From a virus, in the IMG/VR virus record IMGVR_UViG_3300028591_000199, positions 4,163-68,162 of that record: a stretch of 64,000 bases of DNA; one strand, given 5' to 3'. Below the pieces are notes generated by a model. That model was not told the origin of the DNA. It saw nothing but the letters and a program-made list of their open reading frames with translations, and ran no database searches. The position numbers were made by a program, and so were the translations under genes. Shown here piece after piece: positions 42,703 to 61,245 of the stretch (position 1 is its first letter; the number at the start of each line of letters is the position of its first letter).

Positions 42703-44016
42703 TCATTTACCTCTTTTTTCTCTCAATTTTTTATCGCATTGTTTACAACGCGGTGAAAGCCCATCTTTATTTTTAGATTTCTTCATAAAATTATTTGAAG
42801 ACCGCAATAAGGTGCGGCCGCAATCTAAGCAAGTCTTAAACTCTTCCTCAAACATTAAATTTCTAACTGTTTCTGCGTGGAGATTTGCGGTCTCTGCAAT
42901 AGTAGGTAAAATCGATTGTCTATAAAGTGTACTAATATAATTAAGTGTATAGTGACGTCCTCCAGCGGATTCGATTGCACTTACGATGCGCGCGTTGTCC
43001 CATTTTAGTTCTTTTCCTTTTAATATAATGCGCTGAAAGTCCTTTAATGGAGCGAGCGCAACATATGTATCCCACAAATCCAAGATCCATTTTAGATTTG
43101 ACTCGAGGTTTGGCTTTGATTCTGCGGCAGCCCTTAAATCTCCAAGGTGTTCAACCCAGCTTACGAGATGCGCCGGATCATTAAATTTGAAGGTGCGCGC
43201 GCATTGTGAGCCGGAACTCCAAAGCCAGTCACTTAAAACTCTAAGTTCTTCTTCTTGAAAGTCTTGAGGTTCTGGAAAACGATCTTTGCGTAGTAGTTTT
43301 GCCCATAAGTCTGGTTTATCAATAAAGCTTAGTGGTTCTACATTGATGTCTTCTCCCCATAAAAATGTCTCATCTTCGTGATAGACTGGTGTAGTCGCGC
43401 CCAGTATGCTCGGCGCATAATAATCTCTTAATGTATATTGCTGTCTTCTCAACTCAACTAATAAGTGCTTCAACTTTAAAAACTGAAACATATTGAGAGA
43501 TGCTGCGCGTTGTTTAAAGGCTTCGAGGTCTGGCGCAGAGAATCGGCTTATGAGTTTTTCGCGCGGAGGTTTGGTGCGCCGGTTGTGGTCGATTTCCCAA
43601 AATTCAATAATTAAGTCTGTCTCATCAATTTGCGCCCATAGTTGTTCGAGTTGAGCTAACAAGTTAGGCGGAGCCTTTTGTCGTGCTTCTTCGCGCGAAA
43701 ATTGGAGACGAGGCACCTTATATGCCGGTTTTGAGGACGCGCGCAGCATGGATTCGTTGAAGGTAGGGGACTCTAAAAGGGCTTCGAGTGATTCGGGTTG
43801 GGAGGAGTCCCATGTACGGGATGAGGTTTCGAGTTCGAGTCCTTCTTGGCGTCCATTTAAACCGGTTTGAGGATCTTTGCCCCATAATATATATTTACCC
43901 ATCATGTCGAGTTCTTCTTCATTGGGCGTATAAGTTATAGTTTTAAGGTAGGAGCTTACGAATTGGTTACGTTCAGGACGAGTCTGTAAGTTCCAGTCGA
44001 GTTTTAGTCTGCTCAT
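42703..44016 (-). CDS. hypothetical protein with C-terminal Zn finger (possible DNA-binding regulator)
   Basis: CLDC...DGLSPRCKQC; own promoter. Confidence 0.55.
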   Translation of the reverse strand: MSRLKLDWNLQTRPERNQFVSSYLKTITYTPNEEELDMMGKYILWGKDPQTGLNGRQEGLELETSSRTWDSSQPESLEALLESPTFNESMLRASSKPAYKVPRLQFSREEARQKAPPNLLAQLEQLWAQIDETDLIIEFWEIDHNRRTKPPREKLISRFSAPDLEAFKQRAASLNMFQFLKLKHLLVELRRQQYTLRDYYAPSILGATTPVYHEDETFLWGEDINVEPLSFIDKPDLWAKLLRKDRFPEPQDFQEEELRVLSDWLWSSGSQCARTFKFNDPAHLVSWVEHLGDLRAAAESKPNLESNLKWILDLWDTYVALAPLKDFQRIILKGKELKWDNARIVSAIESAGGRHYTLNYISTLYRQSILPTIAETANLHAETVRNLMFEEEFKTCLDCGRTLLRSSNNFMKKSKNKDGLSPRCKQCDKKLREKRGK

Positions 44017-44087: not shown

Positions 44088-44396
44088 ATTTTCGGGCAAG
44101 CAGGTTTATAAGTAGAGCATATAGGATGAAATTTTAGGCGAGGGATATAAAATGAAAATTTTATTTCGATGGGAATTGTTTCCAGGGCAATTTCCAATTT
44201 TTACCAGTATTTCCAAAAATCCCAAAATACACCCCCCTAGTTTTGGAAAATCTTGGAAGCATCACTTTGTTACTTCCATATATTGGAAATGATGCTGCTG
44301 AAGCAGTACCCTCCCCTCGCGCCCGCCCTCTCAAAGATATAGAAGCTAAAAAAGGAAGGATTTCCAAATCCTTCCAGCAGTCCACTTGTTAAATTT

Positions 44397-44582
44397 TTAA
44401 CGATGTCTTCTTTGCACCACTTGCACCACTACAAGCGCAATTAAAGCAACACAAAGCGCAATTAAAAGCCCAATCACGAAGACTTTGGTAGAAATTTCCA
44501 TTGACTCCACGAACGCGCCGAGCATAGCAAGAATGGTAAATATTGCCACTACAACCAATATACGAGATAAGAATGATTTCAC
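44397..44582 (-). CDS. small two-TM membrane protein
   Basis: Two hydrophobic stretches; SD AGAGAGGG; promoter TTGAAA-17-TATACT. Confidence 0.6.
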   Translation of the reverse strand: MKSFLSRILVVVAIFTILAMLGAFVESMEISTKVFVIGLLIALCVALIALVVVQVVQRRHR

Positions 44583-44647
44583 TTTTCAAGCCCTCTCTTT
44601 TCTTTTATTACTATAAGTATAACATAGTTTTAAAACTATTTCAAGTT

Positions 44648-45097
44648 TTAGTTATTGATATACTTTAAGATTGAAACAAGTTCGGTTGCATTGTACGCAA
44701 GGTTAGCGCGACGATTGCACCATTCAAGACGGTTCGCATATTCGTCATCGAATAAGATACCCTCTCTGCCATTGCCTTTCGGTGTGCCGTAAGGTATAAT
44801 GTCAATGTGAGTAAAGTTTACGCTTGCGAGGTGTTTACGAAGCCATTTGATTTTTGCTTTTGCAACTTCGGCATTGTATTTTGCATTTCCATTTTTTGCC
44901 GTCCAAGATACAATATTTATTTCGTATCCCTTGCGATTTGCATTGTTGAGAAGTCTTGCGAGAGATTGAAGATTGATAAGTCCTTTTGCTTCGGTATAAG
45001 GGCGAACCCTCTCGGCGTTCAGGTCTTCAAGCCAGCCGTTGACCGCGTAAAGGTCTGCTATCGTTCCGTCCATATCTAACCATATTGCCTTTATCAT
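44648..45097 (-). CDS. HAD-family (5'-nucleotidase-like) phosphatase, copy 1
   Basis: LDMDGTIADL, SW, K, ILFDD. Confidence 0.75.
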   Translation of the reverse strand: MIKAIWLDMDGTIADLYAVNGWLEDLNAERVRPYTEAKGLINLQSLARLLNNANRKGYEINIVSWTAKNGNAKYNAEVAKAKIKWLRKHLASVNFTHIDIIPYGTPKGNGREGILFDDEYANRLEWCNRRANLAYNATELVSILKYINN

Positions 45098-45208
45098 TGT
45101 TGTTACCTCTCTTTCTATATATAGTATATCACAAGTAAAGATATATGTCAAGGATATAATACAATGTTCATAAATTGTTTACAATTGCGCACCCGGGCGC
45201 AACCGACT

Positions 45209-45226
45209 TTGTTAAATATTTAACAA
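45209..45226. promoter_or_regulatory. Rex-box-like palindrome TTGTTAA-N4-TTAACAA (also 45899-45916; near match 44386-44403)
   Basis: Perfect palindrome matching the clostridial Rex consensus. Confidence 0.55.
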
Positions 45227-45297
45227 TCACTTTAGTATGGTAAAGTACTAATATAATAATATTTTAATATGGTAAAGTATTACTATAAAAGAAAAGT

Positions 45298-45741
45298 TCA
45301 AGCCACGCAGGACTTGAACCATTCTCTCATCTGTTTGCTCTCGCACTTACAACGGACTTTCATTCCACCGCCGTTCTTATCGCTTTCTCTTTCGAGATTA
45401 CCGAACACTCTCAAGAAGTTGGCGAACTCTGTCAAGGTCATTATGTAGGCGGTCAGGTCATTCGTTACATAAGCGACTTGTGTGCTTGCCGTGCGCGCCG
45501 TATAATCGTTGATTTTTTCTTCAAGCGTTTCGCCGTAGTTAAGTCTTGCACTCACAAGAGTAAATCTTTCGCTTTTTACACTCATTTTCAAGGATTTGAT
45601 ATCACTGTCTATGTCGAACGGAACACTGTCTTTTGCGTGTTCGGTTTCGCCCGCGATTTGAAGAGCGACAAGGCGTTCTTTCCATTCGCCTTTATTTTCG
45701 TTTGCGTATCTTTCCATATATTTCATCTGAATTGCTTTCAT
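45298..45741 (-). CDS. hypothetical protein (possible PD-(D/E)xK-like fold)
   Basis: Own promoter TTGACA-17-TATACT and SD; SDI..SVKS motif. Confidence 0.6.
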   Translation of the reverse strand: MKAIQMKYMERYANENKGEWKERLVALQIAGETEHAKDSVPFDIDSDIKSLKMSVKSERFTLVSARLNYGETLEEKINDYTARTASTQVAYVTNDLTAYIMTLTEFANFLRVFGNLERESDKNGGGMKVRCKCESKQMREWFKSCVA

Positions 45742-45975
45742 TGTGATTCCCTCTCTTTCTTTCTGTATATAGTATATCATACTACCGGTATTTTGTCAAG
45801 AGAAAATCAAAAAGTTTTTATTGTCAATATATACAAAATTAGAGGTGAGATTTTGTGCATATTGACTAGTTGGACCCGGGTGCAAGACGAAACCGACTTT
45901 GTTAAATTTTTAACAAGGGCACTCCGACCCGGGTCAAAATACCCGGGCGCGAAAAAGCGGATTATTAGTCCGCTT

Positions 45976-46188
45976 TTACAATTCGAGACCTATTCCGTTG
46001 AACACACTCCAGCCTTCTCCGATGGTGTAGAGATAAAGAACTTCGCCAGTCAAACCATCAATCATTATAACTTCTTTTGCATCCTCGGCAGCGGTAAAAG
46101 CCTTAAAGTAGAAAATTGCGAGTTCCTTATCTATAACTCTTTTAATAACTTCTTTACCCTCATAAGTTTTTACTGAAATCTGAAACAT
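45976..46188 (-). CDS. small hypothetical protein
   Basis: Promoter TTGATT-17-TATAAT, SD AGAGAGGT, terminator AAGCGGA/TCCGCTT. Confidence 0.7.
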   Translation of the reverse strand: MFQISVKTYEGKEVIKRVIDKELAIFYFKAFTAAEDAKEVIMIDGLTGEVLYLYTIGEGWSVFNGIGLEL

Positions 46189-46437
46189 ATCTTTTAACCT
46201 CTCTTTCTTGTACATTTATATTATACTATAAAAGAAAACAAAAATCAAGCACTATAAGAATTGTTTACAAAATGTTCACACTTCCGCGCCGAGTACCCGG
46301 GTCAAAATACCCGGGCATAAGGGTAGTTCTTATGGTAAAAATTGGGAATATGTATGAGTTCCATAAAATAATTATTTTACGGAATTCATCGCGCAAAAGA
46401 AAACGCGCGCAGAAGCGCACGCTTTCTCTATTGGTAT

Positions 46438-46788
46438 TTATTTCCAGCCTTCCATCCATCCACTATATCTAACGGAAATAATTTCATCGTCTTTGATGTC
46501 TTCAGTGCCTTTACTGTCGAAAATTATTGAGCAAATGTCACCGATTTCCCAATCTTCGCCACTCTCTTCAAGATAGAATTGCCAAAGATTACCATTAAAA
46601 TCTCTTACTGTTACAAGGTCATTTGCTTCGTGGATTTCTTCGACGATTGTAGCGAGCGGATAAAGATTATTGAGCATTTTGTCATTATCTTTTTCAAACT
46701 TTATTATTGTAATGACTGTTCCAATAAAGACGGCAAGTATTAAGACAAATGCAATAATAAGCGCGATACTTTGTTGCTTGTTTAACAT
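46438..46788 (-). CDS. hypothetical protein with N-terminal TM/signal anchor
   Basis: Hydrophobic N-terminus; SD AAAGGAGAG. Confidence 0.7.
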   Translation of the reverse strand: MLNKQQSIALIIAFVLILAVFIGTVITIIKFEKDNDKMLNNLYPLATIVEEIHEANDLVTVRDFNGNLWQFYLEESGEDWEIGDICSIIFDSKGTEDIKDDEIISVRYSGWMEGWK

Positions 46789-46806
46789 TGTTTTGCTCTC
46801 CTTTTT

Positions 46807-47010
46807 TTAGTAAATACGAATTACCTTTTCGACTTCACGACCGTCTTCATCTATAACCATATCAAACTCCGCGTCGGCGGTGAGCCAAAGGTCTTCATTC
46901 TTATAATCCCAGCCTTCATTCGCGGTATAGTCATCATAGACTGTCACGCGCAAGTCGCCGTATTTTGCCTTGAGTGCTTCGAGCTTTTTAATCATTTCAC
47001 TAATGGTCAT
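46807..47010 (-). CDS. small hypothetical protein
   Basis: Promoter TTGATT-17-TGaTATAAT; SD AGAGAGGT. Confidence 0.7.
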   Translation of the reverse strand: MTISEMIKKLEALKAKYGDLRVTVYDDYTANEGWDYKNEDLWLTADAEFDMVIDEDGREVEKVIRIY

Positions 47011-47305
47011 TTTGTTTACCTCTCTTTTCTTCTGTGATTATATTATATCACATAAAAAGTTAAAAATCAAGCATTATCAAAATTGTTTACAAAATGTTCA
47101 CATTTTCGCGCCGGGTCGCGCGACCCGGGTACGGACCCGGGTCTGGGATTCACCCGGGTCCGCGCTTTAGCGTGGTAAAGTGCTAAAGTGGCGCAGCCTG
47201 CGCGCCTATAAAAAGCGGTTAGCCTACGCTAACCGCCTATATAATCGCGCTCGCGCCGAGGTAAAGCGTTTGCGCGCTGTCTGGTAAAGGTTGGAAGGCA
47301 GATTT

Positions 47306-47674
47306 TTAATCTGCCTTCGCTACGCGTTCAGCCTTCATCTTGGCTTTGGCTTCGCGCTGTGCCTTATCGCGCGCTATCTTGCGCGCCTTTGCCTCTGCGC
47401 TTTTCTGCGCTTTTTCGGCTTTTTCCGCGACCTTCATCGCGTAACTGTCCGCGACGGAATAACCGTCATAGACATCGCCCTCACGCGAACCCGTAGGGAC
47501 TTTGAAGGTGAGAACGACAAATTCATCGTTGCCTTCATCATCGACACAAGGGAGCGCGATTTCGTTCGAGTTAGTCACAAGGACTTCCTCGCCCTGCCCT
47601 TCAAGGTAGGAGCGCACCGCGTTCATATAACGCGCGCGGAGAGTTTCGTGGAGAGCCTTTTTAGAAGTTGCCAT
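47306..47674 (-). CDS. hypothetical protein with Lys/Ala-rich tail (paralogue of 53956..54312)
   Basis: GEEVL-TNSNE, VLTFKVPTGSR-GD-YDGY shared. Confidence 0.75.
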   Translation of the reverse strand: MATSKKALHETLRARYMNAVRSYLEGQGEEVLVTNSNEIALPCVDDEGNDEFVVLTFKVPTGSREGDVYDGYSVADSYAMKVAEKAEKAQKSAEAKARKIARDKAQREAKAKMKAERVAKAD

Positions 47675-47834
47675 AGAGAACACCTCACTTTTCTTTTACT
47701 GTAATAATTATAGCACAAAAGTTTTAATTTGTCAAGTACTTTTTCTCAATTTCTATAATTATTATATCATAATTTTTTAAAAATTGCAAATTTGTTAAAA
47801 TTTTCCAGTGCCCGGGTACGTGTAGATTTTAAAT

Positions 47835-48080
47835 CTACACGTATAACATTATGAGAAAATAGACATTCAAGGCAACATTTGCCAAGTGCATTATCAACCC
47901 ATTGATGTGCCTATCTACGGTTATATCCTTAATGATACCGATAAGAGCAACGGCAAGACCAAACCAAGCAATAGACAAGCCGTAAATCATAATCAGTATG
48001 ACATTAATTACAGTTATAAACGCGCGCAAGTCATTCCATTCAAAAGTATATGCTTCGTGAATACGGAAAAATTTCTTCAT
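47835..48080 (-). CDS. small membrane protein
   Basis: Hydrophobic 81 aa; SD GAAAGGGG. Confidence 0.65.
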   Translation of the reverse strand: MKKFFRIHEAYTFEWNDLRAFITVINVILIMIYGLSIAWFGLAVALIGIIKDITVDRHINGLIMHLANVALNVYFLIMLYV

Positions 48081-48182
48081 TAATTTTTACCCCTTTCTTT
48101 TGGTATATATATTATAATATACAGATATGAACTAGATATGAACGAAATGTAAACATTTTTCGCGCCCGGGCGCGCCTTGCAG

Positions 48183-48623
48183 TCAGGTCAGCGACCGCAA
48201 GACCGCAAGGAGATTTTTTTCATCGTAGGCTTTCCCTCTCCATTCAAGGCGATTGTTCAATTCGTCATCGAACAGAATGTCGTTTACAGAGTGGGCAAAA
48301 GTGCTTTTCGGCGTGCCATAATGGGCGATATGAATTTCATTAAAGGTAACGGACGGAAGGTGCTTTTTCAACCACTTTACTTTAGTAGTATGTACCATTT
48401 TATCATAAGAGTCGGACGCATTTTTGCTTCCCCAACTGATAATGCCGATATTATAACCATTTTTCTGTAATTTTTTCAAAATTTTTGCAAAATGTGCAAA
48501 ATTTACAAGAGGTTTTGCAATTTTATAGGGACGAGGATTTTCTGCCCTTAATTCTGTAAGCCAATTTTCATAACCATAAAGATTGGCGATTGTTCCATCC
48601 ATATCAAAGAATATTGTAGCCAT
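48183..48623 (-). CDS. HAD-family phosphatase, copy 2
   Basis: FDMDGTIANL, WL-KHL-SV-F, YGTPK, ILFDDE; paralogue of 44648..45097. Confidence 0.75.
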   Translation of the reverse strand: MATIFFDMDGTIANLYGYENWLTELRAENPRPYKIAKPLVNFAHFAKILKKLQKNGYNIGIISWGSKNASDSYDKMVHTTKVKWLKKHLPSVTFNEIHIAHYGTPKSTFAHSVNDILFDDELNNRLEWRGKAYDEKNLLAVLRSLT

Positions 48624-48794
48624 TCATTTAAACCCCTTTCTTTTTCTATAATAATTATACTATATTTTTTGAAAAAAGTCAAGAAAAATTTTCGATTGTT
48701 TACAATTTGTTCATAAATTCGCGCGGGGTACCCGGGTGTTATACACCCGGGCGCCGCTTTAACGCATTAAAGCGTTAAAGCGGTGGTTGAGCGG

Positions 48795-49139
48795 TCACTC
48801 CGTTATGGAGTAACCGTTTACCTTGCCCTTGCCTTTGACCTTGACATCAGAGGTTACGAGCAGACCTTCCTTTTTCAACTGCGTAGCAAGCGCGGAAGCC
48901 TTTGCGGTAGTGATACCGAGTTCGGTTGCGAGCGTGGAAGCGGTAGTCTGTCCGTGTTCACGGAGATACGCGACGATTGCTTCCTTGATAGGAGCATTTG
49001 CGATTGCCGTCTTGCTCGGCTTACTTGCGCGCGAAGTGTTGCGCTTGTCGAGTTTTGCGATGGCGGCGGCGGCGAAATCTTTGAGTTCGTCGGATACTGC
49101 GCTTTCGGTGATGGCGGTGAAAAATTCGCGATTAGTCAT
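48795..49139 (-). CDS. winged-helix DNA-binding-like protein (paralogue of 54717..55073)
   Basis: MTNREF.., TAS-LA-ELGI--KA--L--L--EG-L, VKV-GKGK--GY. Confidence 0.65.
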   Translation of the reverse strand: MTNREFFTAITESAVSDELKDFAAAAIAKLDKRNTSRASKPSKTAIANAPIKEAIVAYLREHGQTTASTLATELGITTAKASALATQLKKEGLLVTSDVKVKGKGKVNGYSITE

Positions 49140-49483
49140 AATAGACCTCTTTCTCCCACTCTTTCGCGGTGGGCGCGTAGTTTTATTTTCGAGAGGGATT
49201 ACTTACTTCCCTCATCGTGTCTATATTATATCACACTTTTAAATGTTTGTCAAGGGGTTTTTGAAAAGTTTTTCAAAAATTTTTTCAAGTCTCGATTTCA
49301 TCAAGCAGTTACCGCGGAGTTTGCTCTTCTCTTTTTCCCTTGCCCCTTGACATTATTAATTATACCATAAGGCGCGTAAAATTACAATAGGCAAATTGCA
49401 CAAAGATTCATATCTTTAATTATTAATATTGTGCAAAATGACGGACGCCCGGGCAGGTGGTAATTTTTACCAATAGACTTAAA

Positions 49484-49847
49484 CAAAAAAGCGCAAAGAC
49501 ATAACCTTATGGCTTATCTTTGCGCTTTTAGTCGATTTTTTGTTATTGACTTTGATAGTGTAACCCCGCACAAAGTCTTCTCTGCAAATCGTAAACAGAT
49601 GTAGAAGTAAGGGGGCAATTCCTACTGATTTCTACTCCGCAAGAAACAACATTTAAGCCAAGCAAACAAATCCGCGCCCATTTTACAATTCTTTTTTTAG
49701 TTTTTCGATAACTTAGGGGAAAGAAACAAATGAGAGACCTAAGACCCTATAAACGCCACTTACATCACTTTTTTATAGTCGAGAGTTTAACAAGCAGTAG
49801 ATATTCTCTCCGTAGTCTATAAGGTAAATGCGCACTTCCCTTTCGAC
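49484..49847 (-). ncRNA. putative structured non-coding RNA occupying one cassette
   Basis: Promoter TTGTAA-17-TGaTATAAT (49854-49882), no ORF over ~20 aa seen, several hairpins, terminator 49487-49529. Confidence 0.5.
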
Positions 49848-49973
49848 ATTATTATTATATCACTCTTATAAGAAAATTACAATAGGCAAAATAAATAAAA
49901 TAAAATGAAAATTTGGTATACATTTTGTATATTTTGACGGTGCCCGGGCGAAAACCCACCTAATAGGTAGGTT

Positions 49974-50162
49974 TTACTTGAATGCTCTCCACTCTATTTC
50001 TTCGCGTTTAATCTCATACTCACACGGCGGCATAGATTGAAGCGTACAAGATGGAGTGTCATCATCTGAAAGGCGCAATGGACACGTTTTACAACTATTG
50101 TGAGTTCTGCAAGTCGTTTTAATACAATCAAGTGCCTCAAGCAATATTTCTCTGTCTGTCAT
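49974..50162 (-). CDS. small Cys-rich protein
   Basis: C..C...C..CPL..C; GAGGAG SD; terminator AACCTACC/GGTGGGTT. Confidence 0.65.
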   Translation of the reverse strand: MTDREILLEALDCIKTTCRTHNSCKTCPLRLSDDDTPSCTLQSMPPCEYEIKREEIEWRAFK

Positions 50163-50165
50163 TTT

Positions 50166-50297
50166 TTACTCCTCTGTATTAAAATATTTTTCTTCAAATT
50201 GTTTTATTTCTTTTGCTTCTTCTTCGGTGAAAAGACCTATCGCAAGAGCAAAATCAAGGTATTGTAAGATTGTACAAAAAATTTCATTTTTAGTCAT
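50166..50297 (-). CDS. 43-aa hypothetical protein (MTKNEIFCTILQYLDF...)
   Basis: Read manually; promoter TTGACA-17-TATAAT and GAAAGGA SD. Confidence 0.55.
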   Translation of the reverse strand: MTKNEIFCTILQYLDFALAIGLFTEEEAKEIKQFEEKYFNTEE

Positions 50298-50421
50298 TTT
50301 ATCTTTCCTTTCTGTTTTCTTGATGTATATATTATATCATATAAAAATAATTTTGTCAAGTAGTAAAATTGTAAATAAATTATGAACGTCCACCGGGGCG
50401 AATACCTACCAAGATGGTAGG

Positions 50422-50748
50422 CTATCTGCCATTTGTTGCCATTTCATCTTTCTGCGGAGGGAAGCCAACTTTTGTTTCCATACAAAACTTCCAAGGGTCT
50501 TTATCCTCATCTACTGCATATTCATCAGATTCGGTGTTTTGCATCCAAAAATCGGGGTCTGCTTCCGCAGGTTGGACAAAATCACTTTGAGAAAACTCAT
50601 ACAAGGCATTGCTAACATTTTTCGCGGCTTTATGAATTTCTGGATTGCTTGCGTTGACTTCAATAGTAGTAAAGAGTTCCATTGCTCTACGGATAATATC
50701 GAGTTCATTTTCAGAAAGATAAAGCGTTTCAGATTTTACAAAGTTCAT
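50422..50748 (-). CDS. hypothetical protein
   Basis: Promoter TTGACT-17-TATAAT; SD GAAAGGA; terminator CCTACC/GGTAGG. Confidence 0.7.
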   Translation of the reverse strand: MNFVKSETLYLSENELDIIRRAMELFTTIEVNASNPEIHKAAKNVSNALYEFSQSDFVQPAEADPDFWMQNTESDEYAVDEDKDPWKFCMETKVGFPPQKDEMATNGR

Positions 50749-50868
50749 TCTTTTTAATTCCTTTCTATTTCTATAATAATTATAGTATATTTCTTTAAAG
50801 AAGTCAATAGTTATTTAAAATGTTTACAAAATGTTCACATTTCCGCGCCCGGGCAAATACCTACTTTT

Positions 50869-51045
50869 TTAGTAGGTATCCAATCCTTCGGCGTCGGCTT
50901 CTTCGCGCGTCACTTCACGCAAGAAAATAGCATTATCAAACCATTCACTTGCAAGGCTTATTGCTTCCACTTTGTCTATTGCTTCGACGAAAAATTCTTC
51001 TCCACTATCACGGTCGACAAATTTAAAAGTTTTTTCTATTGTCAT
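50869..51045 (-). CDS. 58-aa acidic protein (MTIEKTFKFVDRDSGEEFF...GLDTY)
   Basis: Read manually; SD AAAGGGAG. Confidence 0.6.
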   Translation of the reverse strand: MTIEKTFKFVDRDSGEEFFVEAIDKVEAISLASEWFDNAIFLREVTREEADAEGLDTY

Positions 51046-51072
51046 TTTTAATTTCTCCCTTTATTTTATTTC

Positions 51073-51210
51073 TTATAGGACTTCTCTTGTTAAAACATAA
51101 CCATTATATAGTTCTGCTTGTTTCTTCGCATCTGCGTAATGATAATAAACATTATTTACTGTCCATGCCTCTTCATAACCATCATAATAAAATACAATAT
51201 AAACATTCAT
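51073..51210 (-). CDS. 45-aa protein (MNVYIVFYYDGYEEAW...), copy 1
   Basis: Read manually; near-identical copy at 53285..53422. Confidence 0.65.
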   Translation of the reverse strand: MNVYIVFYYDGYEEAWTVNNVYYHYADAKKQAELYNGYVLTREVL

Positions 51211-51215
51211 TTTTT

Positions 51216-51419
51216 TTATTCCTCATCTTCTTCTACTTCGCAATCATCATAATAACATCTTGCAACAGGATAACGCATATCTGCTTCAAAATGTCCATAT
51301 GCTTGGTCAATAGCCATATCTTCAAGGTCACTTTCGGGTAGGTCTTCTTCGTCTTCGGTATCGACTTCAACGTGATAGGTATAATTCTGTGTAAAAGTTA
51401 CTACATATTTCTTTTTCAT
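51216..51419 (-). CDS. small acidic hypothetical protein
   Basis: Promoter TTGACA-17-TATAAT; SD GAAAGGA. Confidence 0.7.
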   Translation of the reverse strand: MKKKYVVTFTQNYTYHVEVDTEDEEDLPESDLEDMAIDQAYGHFEADMRYPVARCYYDDCEVEEDEE

Positions 51420-51530
51420 TATATTTTATTTCCTTTCATTTGTTATATTTATTATACTACATAATCAAATATTTGTCAATAGAAAAATTGTAAACAATTT
51501 ATGAACAGTGCCCGGGCAACGACTGGAAAA

Positions 51531-52010
51531 TTATTCCAGTCGAGGGTCTCCGAGGTCTGGCGCGAGATATTTTTCAAGCAACCGTGCAAGAAGGCAATGA
51601 GATTGTACAAAGTCGATTGCCCATTCGGTGGCGTGCCATTCTTCGGGGAGGTCAAAATACATTTTTGCAAGTTCGGGATTTGCCTGTGCTTCTTCTCTTG
51701 AATATATTGAGCAAACGATTTTAATAAATTCAGTCTGTTCGGTTCTTCTAACAAAATCAAGTGTAAAATAATGTCCTATTTCGTGGAGAAGTGTCCAAAC
51801 CGAAAAAGGTACTGTTAAAACTTCCCCACATTCGTGACTATGTTCAAGATGATAAAGAAAACCGCCGTCAGTGTCGGGACTTACATCTTCAAAGTCAAAA
51901 TTAACTTTATGTTCATCTTCATCATACCAATTACCGTTTCCCTTTTTAAAGGTCACGCGCAATTCGGGAGCGATTGAGCGCACAATACGACGGATTTTTC
52001 TTTTATTCAT
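51531..52010 (-). CDS. putative zinc metallopeptidase (HExxH)
   Basis: LLHEIGHYFT and downstream LPEEWHATEWA; paralogue of 59252..59737. Confidence 0.6.
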   Translation of the reverse strand: MNKRKIRRIVRSIAPELRVTFKKGNGNWYDEDEHKVNFDFEDVSPDTDGGFLYHLEHSHECGEVLTVPFSVWTLLHEIGHYFTLDFVRRTEQTEFIKIVCSIYSREEAQANPELAKMYFDLPEEWHATEWAIDFVQSHCLLARLLEKYLAPDLGDPRLE

Positions 52011-52162
52011 AGGTTTTATATTTCCTTTCAAGTTTTAGTTTTCTCTCTTTCTGTATTTATTATATCATAATTAAAAAGAATTGTCAATAGTTTTTATAGA
52101 AAACTTTTTACCAATTTTTACCTGCGCGCACCGGGCGCACCCGGGCGCGGACTGGTAGAATT

Positions 52163-52882
52163 TTACATTTCTACCAGTTCTGCGAAAACTTCGGTGAGTT
52201 CCATTTCTTTCCTTTTTCTCTGCGGAATGAGCCAGCAAGCGGAATAAATGCGGTCATCATACTCTTTTCCACTATTTACCACTTCAAGGAAAATTTCGGT
52301 TTCAATTTCAACATCTTCCAAACCCGTATGACTTTCTATAAAGTTTATATTTTTCGTTATATATTTATAGGCAGTTTCGGCAGAGGTGGAAATATTTCCC
52401 TTTTCACTCATAAGTCCGTTATCAAGGGCAAAGCGGACAAAATGTTCGGTATTAAGAATAGAAGAACAAGCCATATTCCAAATATCAAAATATTTCGTAC
52501 CATAAGGGAAAAACCATTTTACAAGTGAAGCGGTGATATAATTTATATCGTTTCGTGTTGCTCTGCGGTCAAACCCCATATTATACGCGCCGACTTTTTC
52601 GACTTTGTAGTTCTTCATATCTGCGCTTATTTGTTTGCGAATGTTACAAATTACCTTAATTTCGCGCTTGCCGTTTTTGATTTCTTTCCAATAAGTGGGA
52701 ATTTTTTCAGCATAGTAAGCACTCGACATTAACTCTTTATCAAAAAAAATTTCAGCGACCACAAAAGAACGCTTTACCAAAATTTGGCTATTTTCTACAT
52801 TTACGATTGCGTATCCTATATCATAAGGAAGTGGTTGCTCTATCGTGTTTGCGGTTTCGGTATCAATAATCAGTACATTCAT
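52163..52882 (-). CDS. DEDDh 3'-5' exonuclease (DnaQ-like)
   Basis: IIDTET, AYNMGFD, HTGLED motifs. Confidence 0.8.
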   Translation of the reverse strand: MNVLIIDTETANTIEQPLPYDIGYAIVNVENSQILVKRSFVVAEIFFDKELMSSAYYAEKIPTYWKEIKNGKREIKVICNIRKQISADMKNYKVEKVGAYNMGFDRRATRNDINYITASLVKWFFPYGTKYFDIWNMACSSILNTEHFVRFALDNGLMSEKGNISTSAETAYKYITKNINFIESHTGLEDVEIETEIFLEVVNSGKEYDDRIYSACWLIPQRKRKEMELTEVFAELVEM

Positions 52883-53026
52883 TTTTTTAGTTCCTTTCCT
52901 CAACTGACATTAATATTATACTACTATAAGAGAAAAAAGTCAATAGGGCAATTTGCACAAATTTTTGTATAGTTTTTTGTGCATATTGCTTCGCGCCCGG
53001 GTGAAAACCCACCAAGATGGTAGGTT

Positions 53027-53254
53027 TTAGTTTTCTTCAATCTCATCAACGAAAACGTCACGAAAGCCGACAAACTTGTAAACTTGCTCCCATTGAAGTT
53101 GTTTACCGCATTTACGGCAGACGCCCACACATTTTTCGACTAATGCGTTTTCACCCTCAATCATCGCGCCCTCAAGGTCGTAAATGTCCTCGGAATGAAT
53201 GCGGTCGCTACCGCAGTTGGGGCATTTAAGGTCAGGATATAACTTTCTTTTCAT
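53027..53254 (-). CDS. small Zn-ribbon protein
   Basis: CPNCGS...CRKCG. Confidence 0.65.
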   Translation of the reverse strand: MKRKLYPDLKCPNCGSDRIHSEDIYDLEGAMIEGENALVEKCVGVCRKCGKQLQWEQVYKFVGFRDVFVDEIEEN

Positions 53255-53284
53255 TTTTTTATTTCCTTTCTTTGATTTTGTTTT

Positions 53285-53422
53285 TTATAAGACTTCCCTT
53301 GTTAAAACATAACCGTTATAGAGTTCTGCTTGCTTCTTTGCGTCTGCATAATTATAATAAACATTATTCACTAACCACGCTTCTTCATATCCATCATAAT
53401 AAAATACAATATAAACATTCAT
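53285..53422 (-). CDS. 45-aa protein (MNVYIVFYYDGYEEAW...), copy 2
   Basis: Promoter TTGACA(53476-81)-17-TGcTATAAT; SD AAAGGAG. Confidence 0.65.
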   Translation of the reverse strand: MNVYIVFYYDGYEEAWLVNNVYYNYADAKKQAELYNGYVLTREVL

Positions 53423-53612
53423 TTTTTATCTCCTTTTTTCTTTTGTAATAATATTATAGCACATTCTTTTAAATTTGTCAATACTCTAAATTGTAAATAA
53501 ATTATGAACAGGTTGCACCCGGGCGCATTCACAATTTGTTTACAAATTTCTTCTTGACAATTCCAAAGGAATGTGATATAATAAATACATCAAAAGAAAG
53601 GAATTTAAAAAA

Positions 53613-53834
53613 ATGACTTGTGCAGAAATTTATAAAATGATAACCGAACACACTGACTACTTATCTGTTTTTATTTGCGCCAGAAATTGGGCAAACACAG
53701 ATGAGGGCATACTGATTGCCGATAATATGGAAAAAGATATTTTCTATCGCCTTTTTGGAGATAAAATCCCCACCGATTGGCACCTTTGTTGCAACAATGA
53801 CACTGGTTGGGTTGAGTTGGGCTTTCTTTTCTAA
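53613..53834 (+). CDS. small hypothetical protein
   Basis: Promoter TTGACA-17-TGaTATAAT; SD GAAAGGA; terminator then CCCGGG. Confidence 0.7.
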   Translation: MTCAEIYKMITEHTDYLSVFICARNWANTDEGILIADNMEKDIFYRLFGDKIPTDWHLCCNNDTGWVELGFLF

Positions 53835-53955
53835 AATCTACCTTAAGGGTAGGTTTTGCCCGGGCGCCAGCGTTCATAAATTGTTTACAAATTCCCTCTT
53901 GACAAAATCTCTAATCTATGATATAATAAGTACAAACGAAAGAGAGGTAAACCCT

Positions 53956-54312
53956 ATGACCAACAAAAAGTTCGATCCTATTCGTTCCACCCTTATGCAG
54001 ACAGTATCCGATTTTCTCACCGAGAAAGGCGAAGAGGTCTTGCGCACCAATTCCAATGAGGTGTGTATGCCTATCGTGTCCGCCGACGGCGACGAAGCAT
54101 TCCTTGTCTTAACTTTTAAAGTCCCGACAGGAAGCCGAGATGGTGACCCTTATGATGGTTATGCCATCGCCGCCGATTATAAGGCAAAGTGCCTTGCCAA
54201 TGCGGAAAAGGCACAGAAAAAGGCGATTGCCAAAGCGCAGAAAATCGAGCGTGACCGCAAGATTCGAGAAGCCAAAGCAAAAGCCAAAGCCGAAAGAGAG
54301 AAAACCCAGTAA
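53956..54312 (+). CDS. hypothetical protein with Lys/Ala-rich tail (paralogue of 47306..47674)
   Basis: Promoter TTGACA-17-TGaTATAAT; SD GAGAGGT; shared motifs. Confidence 0.75.
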   Translation: MTNKKFDPIRSTLMQTVSDFLTEKGEEVLRTNSNEVCMPIVSADGDEAFLVLTFKVPTGSRDGDPYDGYAIAADYKAKCLANAEKAQKKAIAKAQKIERDRKIREAKAKAKAEREKTQ

Positions 54313-54397
54313 ACTACTGGGTTTTTCTCATGCCCGGGTATTAATTCGAGGCATTTCTACCCGGGTACTTCCACCCGGGGCGTGACAGACCGGGCGC

Positions 54398-54600
54398 TTC
54401 CAAATTTTACCAATACTGTCAAATTCTGATGGCTTCCAAAATTTTCCAACGACCCCCAAATTTTACCATTTTAAAAAATTTCAGGCAGCTGTAAATTTTC
54501 AGGCAGCTGCAAACTCTATGAGCTGGAAAAATTTTCCAGGAGCTCCAAATTCTGGCAGCTGCAACTTGCTTATCAGCTGCGCCAGGCAGCTGGAAATTTG
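54398..54600. repeat. imperfect tandem repeats CCAAATTTT(A/T)CC and AAATTTTCAGGCAGCTG
   Basis: CAGCTG at 54486, 54504, 54556, 54574, 54587; GAGCT at 54520 and 54540. Confidence 0.75.
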
Positions 54601-54678
54601 AAATGCGCGCAAAATTATGCTATATTTTATACCATAAATTTAAAAGAAAATCAAATTTTAAGCGCATCTAAAAAAGAG

Positions 54679-54699
54679 GCTGGCGCGAAAGACGCCAGC
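54679..54699 (-). terminator. intrinsic terminator
   Basis: GCTGGCG-CGAAAGA-CGCCAGC with T run on the minus strand. Confidence 0.7.
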
Positions 54700-54716
54700 T
54701 TCTAATCCATATTTAC

Positions 54717-55073
54717 TCAGGCAAGAGCGTATCCAACCTGCTTGCCCTTACCAGTAACCTTAACCTGAGTCTTAACAAGAGTGCCATCCTCAACCAGACC
54801 CTTAAGGAGAGAGGGCATCGCCTGAGGCTTAATCTCTACGCCAGCCTCTGCAATCAGAGTGGTCGCAGTCTTAGGCTCAGCGGTCATCACATTCATAATT
54901 GCCTCACGAATGGGCGCGCGAGTAGCTTCCTTCTCAGCGGCTTTCTTCGCGGAAGCCTCTCTGCGCTTACCATTAGTTGCATCGAGCTTCTCGATAGCAG
55001 CCTCAGCAAAAGCAGTAAGTTCGTCGTTCAGATTTGCGTTTACGATAGCGGTGTAGAATTCTCTGTTGGTCAT
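54717..55073 (-). CDS. winged-helix DNA-binding-like protein (paralogue of 48795..49139)
   Basis: MTNREFY.., VKVTGKGKQVGY; own promoter TTGCAA-17-TATAAT. Confidence 0.65.
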   Translation of the reverse strand: MTNREFYTAIVNANLNDELTAFAEAAIEKLDATNGKRREASAKKAAEKEATRAPIREAIMNVMTAEPKTATTLIAEAGVEIKPQAMPSLLKGLVEDGTLVKTQVKVTGKGKQVGYALA

Positions 55074-55202
55074 TTTGTTTTCTCCATTCTCGTGTAGGTC
55101 ACGACCCTTAGTTTAATTTATTTTTATGGGAGAGGGTTTAGGATTTCCCTCTCTCTTTCTTACATATATATTATATCATAGTTTTAAAACTTTTGCAAAT
55201 TT

Positions 55203-58639: not shown

Positions 58640-59194
58640 TTAGAGCATCTCTAAGCATTCCTTATATTTCGCTTGGCAGTCTGCAAGTACAGTTTCCAAA
58701 CTCACAGGTTTATTATTATGGCTATCCAAACCAACATGATACATATATGGGCGATCTTCAAAGAAATTAGTAAGTTGATGTGTATGCCCATAAAGATTTA
58801 TAAGTGTTTTGCTAAGCGACTCATGCTCAAGATTACCTGTATAAGTAGGATAATGTGAAAGGTAAAAATGATATTTGTTCCAATCAAGTTTATATGCTAA
58901 CTCGACATCTACTATATTATACACATGAGAATAAAGCTCTGCGCGAGTAGCAGTATCATGGTTTCCTAGCGCGATATGGATACGTCCTTGCAGTTGTTTT
59001 AGACACTTCAGACCTGACTCATTATCCTTTAGCATAATATCACCCAAAAGGTAAACATCATCATCCCATGAAACGCACTGGTTCCAATTTTTTATAATTG
59101 TCTGATTCATTTCATCTACCGACTGAAAACCACGTTTCTTCCAAATAAACTCACGATCGTGGCAGAAATGGGTATCGCTAGTTAACCAAATCAT
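58640..59194 (-). CDS. calcineurin-like metallophosphoesterase
   Basis: SDTHFCH, LGD, GNHD, SHYP, GHTH. Confidence 0.85.
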   Translation of the reverse strand: MIWLTSDTHFCHDREFIWKKRGFQSVDEMNQTIIKNWNQCVSWDDDVYLLGDIMLKDNESGLKCLKQLQGRIHIALGNHDTATRAELYSHVYNIVDVELAYKLDWNKYHFYLSHYPTYTGNLEHESLSKTLINLYGHTHQLTNFFEDRPYMYHVGLDSHNNKPVSLETVLADCQAKYKECLEML

Positions 59195-60405: not shown

Positions 60406-60735
60406 TTAACTATCCTCATTTTTATAACATATATGTATATAGTCCCATAATTCTTTTGGTGTGCGTAAAGGAATATCTTTTCCATCAAATCGAACCATGC
60501 CTGGCTTCCATTTGCGCCCAAAATCTAATTCATAAATGAAATAGTCCAAATCGCTTCCTGCTACTGGATCTTCAGGTAGCTCGCATAAAGAAGAAAACAA
60601 AGCATAATATTCAGAAATCCAGTTTGAAGGAACCCATTCACAGATATCTAATGCTTTAATAACTTGAGCTTCTTGTTTATACATTTTCTCTAAAGTACAA
60701 ACACCATTTATAAATTCTTCTTCTGTTAATCTCAT
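60406..60735 (-). CDS. hypothetical protein
   Basis: YFIYELDFG..DIPL-T-ELWDY motif; SD AAGGAG. Confidence 0.65.
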   Translation of the reverse strand: MRLTEEEFINGVCTLEKMYKQEAQVIKALDICEWVPSNWISEYYALFSSLCELPEDPVAGSDLDYFIYELDFGRKWKPGMVRFDGKDIPLRTPKELWDYIHICYKNEDS

Positions 60736-60741
60736 TTTATT

Positions 60742-61245
60742 TTACTCCTTAGAGTCTGAAGCGTAATGTGCATCTACCTTCCCATCAATAGTATGCTTTA
60801 TGATGCCATCCCATCCTTCCGCGAAGGTAGGATATTCAAGTTTATGCTGTTGACGAATAATAACAGAAGCTGGAACTTTTCTCGCGCGCCAAGACTGACG
60901 ATTGATTGCATCTTCTGCTGAAATAGGAAAATAATGTAACACCTTTAAATACGCATCCTCTTTACCAGATCGCTTCAATTCACGGAGTATCTGCTTGCGC
61001 GCGATGCGAGTAAGATTGGTTGCATCAAAAATTACATTTTCTTCATTTGAAAAAGCTTTCTGTAACTGATTATGCGCTATACCCCATACCTCTTTATCTT
61101 TGGACTGGTCAGCAGCATCACCAGTCAACTGTTCACGTAACTGATCCGGACAAATGATTATACAATCATCTGCCTCAGCTAACTTAAATGCCAGTGTAGA
61201 TTTTCCAGCTCCAGCAATTCCGCACATACAATGAAATAAGCTCAT
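60742..61245 (-). CDS. polynucleotide kinase (P-loop, AAA_33-like)
   Basis: GIAGAGKST, D-LR, FDATN, R..R.VP..VI, P...EGW. Confidence 0.8.
   Translation of the reverse strand: MSLFHCMCGIAGAGKSTLAFKLAEADDCIIICPDQLREQLTGDAADQSKDKEVWGIAHNQLQKAFSNEENVIFDATNLTRIARKQILRELKRSGKEDAYLKVLHYFPISAEDAINRQSWRARKVPASVIIRQQHKLEYPTFAEGWDGIIKHTIDGKVDAHYASDSKE

Follow-up and report, generated by a model that had tools for sequence, protein, structure and literature searches.

No part of a phage genome changes faster or is less well understood than the early region, which holds most of the host-takeover and counter-defence genes. How early regions stay modular is known in outline only, the single worked example being the promoter–stem-loop (PeSL) elements of T4-type phages. 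As far as the accessible part of that study goes, PeSLs are repeats of about 100 bp, each made of a promoter and a stem-loop, which recombine between repeated cassettes, probably in their AT-rich part, thereby shuffling ORFans and giving rise to mini-circles (Arbiol et al. 2010, PMC2839356). Here we analyze a stretch of 64,000 nucleotides from the IMG/VR virus record IMGVR_UViG_3300028591_000199 (positions 4,163 to 68,162; hereafter "the window"), in which an array of early-gene cassettes is delimited by a short palindrome, CCCGGG. The closest published concept is the PeSL-mediated modular shuffling of T4-type phages. In both cases, judging from the accessible sections of the PeSL paper, small non-essential early genes each have a sigma-70-type promoter and a stem-loop, and the differences between close relatives map to the junctions, which have been proposed to mediate modular shuffling (PMC2839356). 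The same sections describe composite repeats of about 100 bp with no dedicated site or enzyme (PMC2839356), whereas here the crossover is an exact palindrome of 6-8 bp or an inverted repeat of 21 bp, placed between hairpin and promoter, and the joint is genome-specific, switches as a set from one close relative to another, is found alongside a nuclease-fold gene and is accompanied by cassette inversion. In the limited full-text library that we searched, we found no account of a phage early region in which a junction palindrome peculiar to the genome is paired with a gene for a nuclease-fold protein. We propose, with a confidence that stands about level with our doubt, that the palindrome is the site of the array's own restriction-endonuclease-fold protein, which would recognize and cleave it, and a hot spot for cassette exchange and inversion.

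Two further systems offer partial parallels. RAYTs (REP-associated tyrosine transposases) are relatives of HUH-type transposases in bacterial chromosomes. Together with the repetitive extragenic palindromes (REP, REPIN) they recall the array in combining many intergenic palindromes, one cognate nuclease-type gene and sequence classes that go with enzyme lineages (PMC3337134 and related papers). The phage protein differs in its predicted restriction-endonuclease-like fold, and the phage repeats are confined to an array of 5-11 kb, where they mark cassette borders. The second parallel is the pre-early region of phage T5, which, in the available portion of a report on it, spans about 10 kb with some 17 small, mostly dispensable early genes read by the host polymerase, among them genes for a deoxynucleoside monophosphate phosphatase and for nucleases (10.64898/2026.04.02.716235). 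The window array likewise has two phrog_2643 genes, an exonuclease-like gene and host-type promoters. However, any kinship to T5 is distant at best, the nearest cultured terminases being those of Firmicutes phages at no more than 42% identity, and a terminal-repeat location is only hinted at here. To our knowledge no junction palindrome is known for T5, and we found none described in the literature searched.

The array belongs to an uncultured sheep-gut phage of about 115 kb whose nearest cultured relatives infect Firmicutes. A PHROG scan of the window identified genes for a RecJ-like exonuclease, a DNA polymerase, a tape-measure protein of 2603 aa, a portal protein, the large terminase and an RNA ligase; the nearest cultured terminases are those of Geobacillus virus E3 (42%) and then of Alicyclobacillus, Enterococcus, Bacillus and Lactococcus phages, all below 60%. 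Deposited phages held no near-identical DNA, and the sole public run with the region is a sheep gut metagenome, kept as contigs, which is probably the source sample. Relatives were retrieved through the terminase, which yielded 80 related loci; the complete relatives span 107-128 kb.

CCCGGG occurs 24 times in the window, every copy lying within 45192-54379 (9.2 kb). The expectation from dinucleotide-preserving shuffles is 2.36 copies (standard deviation 1.69, maximum 9), none of the 100 shuffles reached 24, and the full viral record of 68,162 bases (rated 59% complete) has the same 24 copies and no further one. Among the 80 terminase loci, eight hold 5-12 CCCGGG each, all upstream of the terminase, and in four complete relatives the sites lie inside the array in 8/9, 9/9, 20/21 and 19/19 cases; other relatives have one CCCGGG or none, and another enriched motif in the same region. 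Shuffles, whole-record count and relatives together rule out chance or base composition as the source of the cluster. The original prediction, made from the sequence alone, had described this concentration, had called for a genome-wide count and had conceded that a motif equally common elsewhere would be a promoter-proximal binding motif only; the count comes out in its favor.

The bases flanking the site are constrained as well: a purine precedes it in 24/24 copies and a pyrimidine follows it in 23/24, so that 23/24 read RCCCGGGY. The array contains five CCGG tetramers outside CCCGGG, and four of these are the one-base-short form RCCGGGY (CCGG starting at 47111, 50393, 52131 and 54390). The 24 sites fall into 17 junction groups, in keeping with the "about 17 cassettes" counted before. 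The stacks seen earlier (45928/45942, 46296/46310, 47124-47158 and 54333-54379) are as described, and so is the repeated 22-mer, a double site present twice that brackets the cassette 45948-46295 from both sides. These stacks are plausibly scars of cassette loss. The array and its sites, which have no strand, are as follows:

45192..54379, whole array of early-gene cassettes with RCCCGGGY at its junctions (24 sites in 17 groups)
45192..45197, junction site, the -35 of the 44648-45097 promoter lying 40 nt downstream
45875..45880, junction site, ahead of the nuclease-like gene's promoters
45928..45947, double site, within the first 22-mer copy
46296..46315, double site, within the second 22-mer copy
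47124..47158, triple site, with a one-base-short variant before it (CCGG start 47111)
47811..47816, junction site, a hairpin ending directly ahead
48165..48170, junction site, within a GC-only palindrome of 16 bp
48731..48751, double site (stack 48731/48746)
49448..49453, junction site, CCCGGG
49943..49948, junction site, CCCGGG
50392..50398, degenerate junction site aCCGGGg, in the same hairpin-promoter slot
50848..50853, junction site, CCCGGG
51511..51516, junction site, CCCGGG
52140..52145, junction site, with a one-base-short variant before it (CCGG start 52131)
52996..53001, junction site, CCCGGG
53518..53523, junction site where polarity switches, between divergent promoters at 36 and 30 nt
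53859..53864, junction site between two plus-strand cassettes
54333..54379, triple site at the distal array edge, followed by a one-base-short variant (CCGG start 54390)

As to other short GC words, GCGC (339 against 58 expected) and CGCG (257 against 58), counted outside the array, are about 5-fold over-represented window-wide, and GGCC is depleted (11 against 58 expected outside the array, 0 against 12.5 inside).

Each cassette is an expression unit. Sigma-70-type promoter-like sites are enriched in the array (71 against 30.9 ± 5.3 expected), eight of them matching at 12/12 positions, and there is one strong promoter per cassette. At 14 of 23 sites, the 50 nt upstream of the site in the direction of the transcript fall into the top 5% for stability among 2000 background windows, and in many cases the stem ends 0-3 nt ahead of the site. 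The order along the transcript is thus hairpin, site, variable boxes, -35 and -10. A crude scan for terminator-like signals gave no enrichment (10 against 10.0 expected). Of the stereotyped promoter-gene-terminator unit that had been predicted, promoters and hairpins stand, and the element upstream of the site is a hairpin; its role as a terminator, which the scan did not bear out, is one that we infer. The reversal of polarity exactly at site 53518 is likewise as predicted, with divergent promoters 30 and 36 nt from it.

A site in front of promoters may be mainly regulatory or architectural, an insulator, a roadblock behind the hairpin or a target for early shut-off, with the nuclease-fold genes as ordinary cargo used, for example, in host DNA breakdown alongside the exonuclease-like and deoxyribonucleotidase-like genes, and with crossovers as a by-product that would arise because the site alone offers an exact sequence in the sole neutral spacer. 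There is one site per promoter-bearing junction, perfectly kept within a genome, which implies selection on each copy, and the cargo resembles the host-DNA-degrading pre-early set of T5 as portrayed in the available part of that report (10.64898/2026.04.02.716235). Nevertheless, the distance from site to -35 ranges from 21 to 75 nt among promoter-proximal sites while the site tracks the end of the hairpin, which argues against an operator of fixed geometry, and some sites, in the stacks and at the array edge, have no promoter, which together with the variable distance argues against a classic operator. We consider this explanation doubtful, and return to it below with the evidence from relatives.

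Other elements accompany the junctions. In many cassettes (45165-53890, e.g. 50812-50830) an operator-like box lies between the site and the -35, with half-sites TGTGAACA...TGTAAACA 11 bp apart and in both orientations; we take it to resemble the direct-repeat sites of OmpR-family response regulators such as WalR. Box and site were considered as a single element and found to be separable, since the 19-nt box is present in five other viral contigs (L005-L009) with no CCCGGG in the stretches fetched around it. A repeated hairpin of the type TTGTTAA-N4-TTAACAA, with AACCGACT before it, stands beside two junction sites (45209-45226 and 45899-45916), one copy forming a "mini-cassette" of 53 bp between sites 45875 and 45928. 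In two relatives, L128 and L129 (e.g. L129 8320-8345 and 9020-9043), the box beside the junction palindrome is GAACATATGTTC-like, presumably a match to the Gram-positive LexA (SOS) box, which would suggest host SOS control over some of their early promoters. In the array of L017, at its far end (857, 1581 and 2018), CCCGGG lies inside or just downstream of promoters reading in the opposite direction, with a hairpin after each, an arrangement that looks different and is possibly RNA-only.

The original prediction had treated CCCGGG as the one site, and this did not survive the comparison with relatives: it is one of several interchangeable junction palindromes in the phage family. The joint is CGGCCG in L029 and L032 and GCCGGC in L132 and L133, and the same slot between hairpin and promoter holds TTTCGTACG-N5-CGTACGAAA (CGTACG type) in L014, TTAGACGT-N3-ACGTCTAA in L038 and TTAGACGA-N3-TCGTCTAA in L050. 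The inverted repeat AGACGA-N3-TCGTCT occurs 10-15 times per genome in five genomes, in the array only, and a control pattern gave 0 matches. In CGGCCG arrays, once the site is extended by a base at either end, CCGG is present in 20 of 22 distinct junction sites, compared with 15 of 53 control sites, so that all three GC hexamers have a common CCGG core. The joint is uniform within a genome, absent or nearly absent outside the array, and different between genomes, being either a GC hexamer with a CCGG core or a 21-bp inverted repeat. Mixed-hexamer arrays also exist, such as L123 with 13 CCCGGG and 7 CGGCCG. The exchange is sharpest between L044 and L050, which are 93% identical over 14.7 kb of structural genes and about 77-88% identical in cargo; the order of the cargo differs, every joint differs, and homology ends at the joint on both sides, what is exchanged being the joint and a few flanking bases. 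The motif of L014, L038 and L050 resembles a classic dimer operator placed 8-25 nt upstream of the -35, which speaks for a regulatory site.

Cassettes are gained, lost and replaced at the joint. Between L044 and L074 (about 90% identity), both cassette indels have both ends at CCCGGG (L044 3007 and 3546; L074 5471 and 5829). In comparisons of same-type arrays within a clade of 11 genomes, where the counts come from related and hence non-independent genome pairs, 142 block ends lie 0-9 bp past the motif, other 10-bp bins having at most 44, and 129 block starts lie 1-20 bp before it. Between arrays of different type, homology mostly ends less than about 30 bp before the motif and is back within about 40 bp after it. 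The breakpoints of gain, loss and replacement thus sit at the junction motif, as the original prediction had required. Its "symmetric crossover or cut-and-join site" is upheld to the extent that cassettes are gained, lost, replaced and inverted at the motif; an enzymatic cut-and-join would be a further step.

Such breakpoints might arise with no dedicated enzyme at all, if the palindrome were a passive linker that provides in-register microhomology for general phage or host recombination, as in PeSLs but with a shorter repeat. There is precedent in the recombination between promoter and stem-loop elements and the mini-circles described in the accessible part of the PeSL study (PMC2839356). The motif is also the longest shared stretch in 20 of 45 junction pairs of the inverted-repeat arrays, and breakpoints form a second cluster in the promoter region. 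The CCCGGG arrays behave otherwise. In both L044/L074 indels the identity through the site is 9 bp. Among the junction pairs of the window its median is 7 bp, against 10 bp for the longest substring that a pair shares within ±150 nt; that substring is the site in only 9 of 78 pairs, the other 69 having longer matches close by, yet both indels break at the site. Junctions conserved over some 100 bp, such as would drive PeSL recombination, are absent here, the junction repeats being 62-82% identical to one another with an exact crossover match of 7-9 bp, and the breakpoint peak is the short palindrome, not the AT-rich promoter part as in PeSLs. Moreover, recombination between direct repeats cannot invert cassettes, and the wholesale, genome-specific swap of joint and nuclease-fold gene would be left unexplained. 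A passive linker is thus unlikely in our view.

Inversion is seen in the orientation of the cargo, for which the flanking sigma-like gene serves as a reference:

42703..44016, minus strand, sigma-factor-like gene on the proximal flank, anchor for order and orientation (phrog_5767, E 7e-11)

This gene is kept at the same position in relatives (36-47% identity by tblastn in the terminase-derived loci); a search for relatives through the gene itself returned none, the homologues being those that tblastn did show in the terminase-derived loci. Its 437-aa product has a sigma-like C-terminal part and weak zinc-ribbon or HNH-like matches at the very end. In all five relatives examined, the terminase and sigma-like genes are on one strand and every shared cargo gene is on the other; in the window the shared cargo is on the strand of those two genes. 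Correspondingly, in relatives oriented by the terminase 47/47 nuclease-like genes run antiparallel to it, and that of the window, which runs parallel, is the sole exception. The window is collinear with the relative G001 over 0-44 kb, and beyond the array the stretches 58640-59194 and 60742-61245 follow the main block; 60406-60735, also beyond the array, is a short match only and does not fit. Every minus-strand marker is flipped in the window, and the one plus-strand marker past site 53518 is not. Contigs of the probable source run, an independent assembly of what are probably the same data, span both the junction between the sigma-like gene and the array and the switch at 53518. A minus-strand BLAST among relatives was uninformative, as its 33 matches in CCCGGG-type loci mostly reflect the orientation in which loci were fetched, and the inverted-repeat type gave none.

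Inversion of the whole array en bloc was considered and rejected, because it would have reversed the order of the cassettes. Counted from the sigma-like gene, that order correlates positively with that of the window (median rho 0.66) in 19 of the 21 relatives that have four or more markers. Single cassettes inverted again and again would be expected to leave the order intact and reverse the orientation, as seen here, and the evidence for such inversion at the self-complementary site, although indirect, is strong; many events would be needed. The inverted cassettes of the original prediction are borne out in this sense, by evolutionary comparison and not by observed switching. A regulatory site does not by itself explain inversion cassette by cassette.

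Gain, loss and inversion in a cassette array with a repeated boundary site had led the original prediction to an integron-like system, whose recombinase, invisible in the window, would be encoded elsewhere in the genome. Like integrons, the locus lines up exchangeable gene cassettes in tandem, separated by copies of a boundary site. Shufflons and other multiple-inversion systems (R64 Rci, p15B Min, Mu Gin) work with a recombinase of the tyrosine or serine type and exchange the ends of a single protein; the array is like them in that adjacent segments invert independently at short repeated sites, here again by evolutionary comparison. The search for such an enzyme was negative. Tyrosine recombinases (PF00589) were found in 0/5 complete relatives and 0/1 own record, with a control positive in 14/14 genomes, and serine recombinases in none of the five complete relatives nor in the own record, with a control positive in 12/14 genomes. 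Integron-like and shufflon-like mechanisms as usually defined are thereby removed. The array differs from integrons also in having neither an integrase nor the attI/attC asymmetry, and from shufflons in that the inverting units are whole expression cassettes. Its cassettes are not promoterless, each having its own promoter, and the joint goes with the array, not with the cassette, the same cargo having CCCGGG in L044 and TTAGACGA-N3-TCGTCTAA in L050. The "integron-like" label was accordingly dropped, and an integron- or shufflon-like recombinase elsewhere in the genome is hardly credible. The statement that no site-specific recombinase is visible holds for tyrosine and serine recombinases in the whole record, but it passed over a candidate enzyme gene inside the array:

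45298..45741, minus strand, candidate junction-site enzyme of the c136 family, 147 aa (hmmsearch E 1e-41; invariant N16, G18, E22, D47 and K56)

This gene lies in a previously unannotated window ORF (open reading frame), 45298-45780, which a profile search assigned to c136 (E 1e-41). Of the loci that extend 5 kb or more upstream of the terminase, all 40 have either a c136 gene or a gene of a second family, c157, and never both; c136 is restricted to loci whose joints are GC hexamers, and c157 to loci whose joints are inverted repeats. In five genomes of the close clade (two of the CCCGGG and three of the AGACGA type), the change is a single positional replacement next to the sigma-like gene, of a 155-aa c136 protein against a c157 protein of 182-204 aa. 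Within c157, identity drops as the motif changes: proteins from AGACGA arrays are 91% or more identical to that of L050, those from two AGACGT arrays about 50%, and that from the CGTACG array 34%. We found no other protein family that switches with the motif class, which weighs against a mainly regulatory site.

Residues of catalytic type are conserved in both families. In the alignment of c157, D55, E68 and K70 are invariant and E35 nearly so, and we take the order E...D...(E/Q/S)xK of both families to be that of PD-(D/E)XK nucleases. AlphaFold models (predicted local distance difference test scores of 91.7 for c136 and 83.7 for c157) point to restriction-endonuclease-like folds, and in a structural scan of the c136 model that took in 48,161 chains the top neighbours were:

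HhaI, Z 7.5
NhoI, Z 6.5
I-Ssp6803I, Z 5.2
MspI, Z 5.1
HinP1I, Z 5.0

The scan with c157 placed the same enzymes on top (Z 3.6-5.1). MspI cuts CCGG, and HhaI and HinP1I cut GCGC; CCGG is also the core of the joints in the window. HhaI, MspI, HinP1I and I-Ssp6803I are thus the nearest solved folds to both array proteins, with the pattern E...D...(Q/S/E)xK conserved. The array proteins differ from small type II enzymes in that Z is 3.6-7.5, no match was found at the level of sequence and no partner methyltransferase was found, and in that their presumed targets cluster in the very genome that encodes them. The large c136 family comprises 855 clusters at 50% identity (E<=0.001), nearly all of 113-198 aa; the source names of 10 of them are "hypothetical protein" or blank. 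Searches with both proteins by tblastn against deposited phages gave no match. Two or three c136 paralogues per array are found in L016, L012, L019, L024, L071, L123, L126, L128 and L129; one paralogue per site type would fit the mixed-hexamer arrays.

CCCGGG, CGGCCG, GCCGGC and CGTACG are typical type II restriction sites, and with a protein predicted to have a restriction-endonuclease-like fold in the array, ordinary restriction-modification comes to mind, either as host restriction sites kept for some benefit or as a system of the phage's own. However, the five complete genomes had neither an N4/N6 nor a C5 methyltransferase (PF01555 and PF00145), phages normally lose restriction sites whereas these are 10- to 50-fold concentrated at junctions, the 21-bp inverted repeats are unlike restriction sites, and close relatives, probably of the same host, carry different motifs. 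Restriction-modification is therefore very unlikely. The original prediction had asked for a nuclease or a methyltransferase in the rest of the genome; the search found a candidate for the former, as a restriction-endonuclease-fold gene within the array itself, and not the latter.

We therefore propose the following scheme for the palindrome as a nuclease site and exchange hot spot. Autonomous cassettes, each with a sigma-70-type promoter, one to three small genes and a hairpin, have the palindrome in the short spacer ahead of the next promoter region. The restriction-endonuclease-fold protein would recognize the joint, c136 proteins reading GC-hexamer joints and c157 proteins inverted-repeat joints, and would probably cut or nick there. 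A break or crossover at the joint would then remove, add or swap a whole working cassette, and could also turn it round, since the site is its own inverted repeat. In its strongest form, which we offer tentatively and rate well short of an even chance, the rearrangement is recombinase-free: a restriction-type nuclease would cut the palindromes, and rejoining or repair of the compatible ends would delete, insert, swap or invert cassettes, as a natural "restriction-and-ligation" shuffling of host-takeover genes. Nuclease and site would then make up a specificity module that can be exchanged as one, with five site types or more in this single phage family. Shuffling may be the selected function of the site or a by-product of early-gene shut-off or of terminal-repeat processing, and the primary role of the site could also be something else altogether, with shuffling as its by-product.

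Several observations weigh against a nuclease that reads the joint. As to the breakpoints, CCCGGG-type indel events number two, and another 106 block starts are clustered 70-90 bp from the motif on its promoter side. Because the site fills the only spacer that leaves both neighbouring cassettes intact, selection alone would also concentrate surviving breakpoints there. The 156-nt duplication 51060-51215 / 53272-53427 is not bounded by junction sites, so that cargo may also be copied by another route. As to the enzyme, the Z scores are middling (maximum 7.5 for c136 and 5.1 for c157), and a Z below 8 may reflect a common arrangement; Foldseek gave no match at E<=0.001, Pfam and PHROGs have no family for the array nuclease-like proteins, a sequence profile against solved structures found nothing convincing (best E 0.0011, to an unrelated protein), and hhalign aligned the catalytic-type motifs of c136 and c157 at only 10% probability. 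Outside the array CCGG alone is not avoided (36 observed against 58 expected), and no methyltransferase was found in the five complete genomes with PF01555 and PF00145, other methyltransferase families not having been searched, so that an active enzyme would find 10-24 sites unprotected in the genome that encodes it, which calls for an explanation. This last point, and the failure of the c136 phylogeny to follow the hexamer, favor a regulatory site: mapped on the c136 tree, hexamer type changes 10 times against a shuffled mean of 12.0, with as few changes in 16 of 200 shuffles and hence no significant clustering, and the mutually nearest c136 genes of L128 (CGGCCG) and L129 (CCCGGG), 74-76% identical in DNA, belong to arrays with different hexamers, a conflict only partly softened by the common CCGG core. 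Finally, the nuclease gene lies inside an array block that moves as a unit, with at least three switches relative to the terminase tree (a minimum, as 14 of 42 terminases passed the extraction filter), so that its co-occurrence with the joint may be linkage. The exonuclease-like array gene also co-varies with motif type in the close clade, and linkage alone can thus produce co-variation; this DEDD-type gene was considered as the specificity factor and set aside, as it looks like an exonuclease.

The remaining genes of the array and its distal flank are as follows:

44648..45097, minus strand, 5'-deoxyribonucleotidase-like, copy 1 (phrog_2643, E 1.7e-7)
45976-46215, 46438-46788, 46807-47010 and 47306-47674, minus strand, ORFs, cargo of unknown function
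47835..48080, minus strand, cargo of unknown function, 81 aa, common to L012 and L019
48183..48623, minus strand, 5'-deoxyribonucleotidase-like, copy 2 (phrog_2643, E 1.2e-11)
48795..49139, minus strand, small helix-turn-helix (Ren/MarR-like) protein (phrog_142, E 2e-9; phrog_2440, E 1.1e-5)
49974-50162, 50166-50297, 50422-50748, 50869-51045, 51073-51210 and 51216-51419, minus strand, ORFs, cargo of unknown function
51531..52010, minus strand, HExxH metalloprotease-like, weak (phrog_87, E 0.0034; Pfam matches below cut-off)
52163..52885, minus strand, DnaQ/DEDD-type exonuclease-like (phrog_20187, E 4e-48; phrog_192, E 0.0011; 40% identity to an array protein of G001)
53027-53254 and 53285-53422, minus strand, cargo of unknown function, 53285-53422 being a copy of 51073-51210
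53613-53834 and 53956-54312, plus strand, two cassettes, 53956-54312 being the sole shared marker in the family orientation
54717..55073, minus strand, distal flanking cassette, helix-turn-helix-like paralogue (phrog_19455, E 1.2e-8), outside the last CCCGGG yet flipped like the array

We take 52163-52885 to be exonuclease-like from its DnaQ/DEDD-type motifs. That cargo recurs between cassettes, with one pair inverted, had been noted before and is confirmed: there are two deoxyribonucleotidase-like genes, two winged-helix-like genes, a direct duplication of 156 nt (51060-51215 / 53272-53427, 88% identity, with a 45-aa ORF), and an inverted pair, orf122 on the minus and orf118 on the plus strand, which both match one gene in L016 and in L012. 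One or two ORF-poor cassettes, 49454-49942 and about 49150-49447, have a good promoter and a hairpin and no ORF longer than about 40 codons. They may encode small RNAs; no Rfam family was found in them, and one sub-threshold match lay elsewhere.

The array may lie within a long direct terminal repeat, as in T5-type phages. In the contigs of the probable source run, 45057-55180 (10.1 kb) has a word depth of 21.5-23.2 against 12.5-13.8 on both flanks, a depth that is not a copy number. The same contigs, at 90% likeness, contain many joints at promoter or leader repeats and 0 at CCCGGG; with sides of 20-27 letters these are unreliable, and count neither for nor against rearrangement. Both array edges carry clustered short AT-rich repeats, TTCCAAA-type units with hairpins on the left (44100-44400) and iteron-like units on the right (54398-54655), which could be terminal-repeat borders, an origin or binding arrays.

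To the modularity of phage early regions this case adds a sharply defined alternative, an exact palindrome at each junction that is swapped as a set between phages with 93% identical structural genes. If the nuclease-fold protein reads the site, this would be a new, recombinase-free way of rearranging DNA and would give a first function to the large unnamed c136 family, and if cutting and rejoining were shown, it could be categorically new. If the site is instead regulatory, some 10-24 operators would have switched in concert across the genome between near-identical phages, a notable example of a regulator changing together with its sites.

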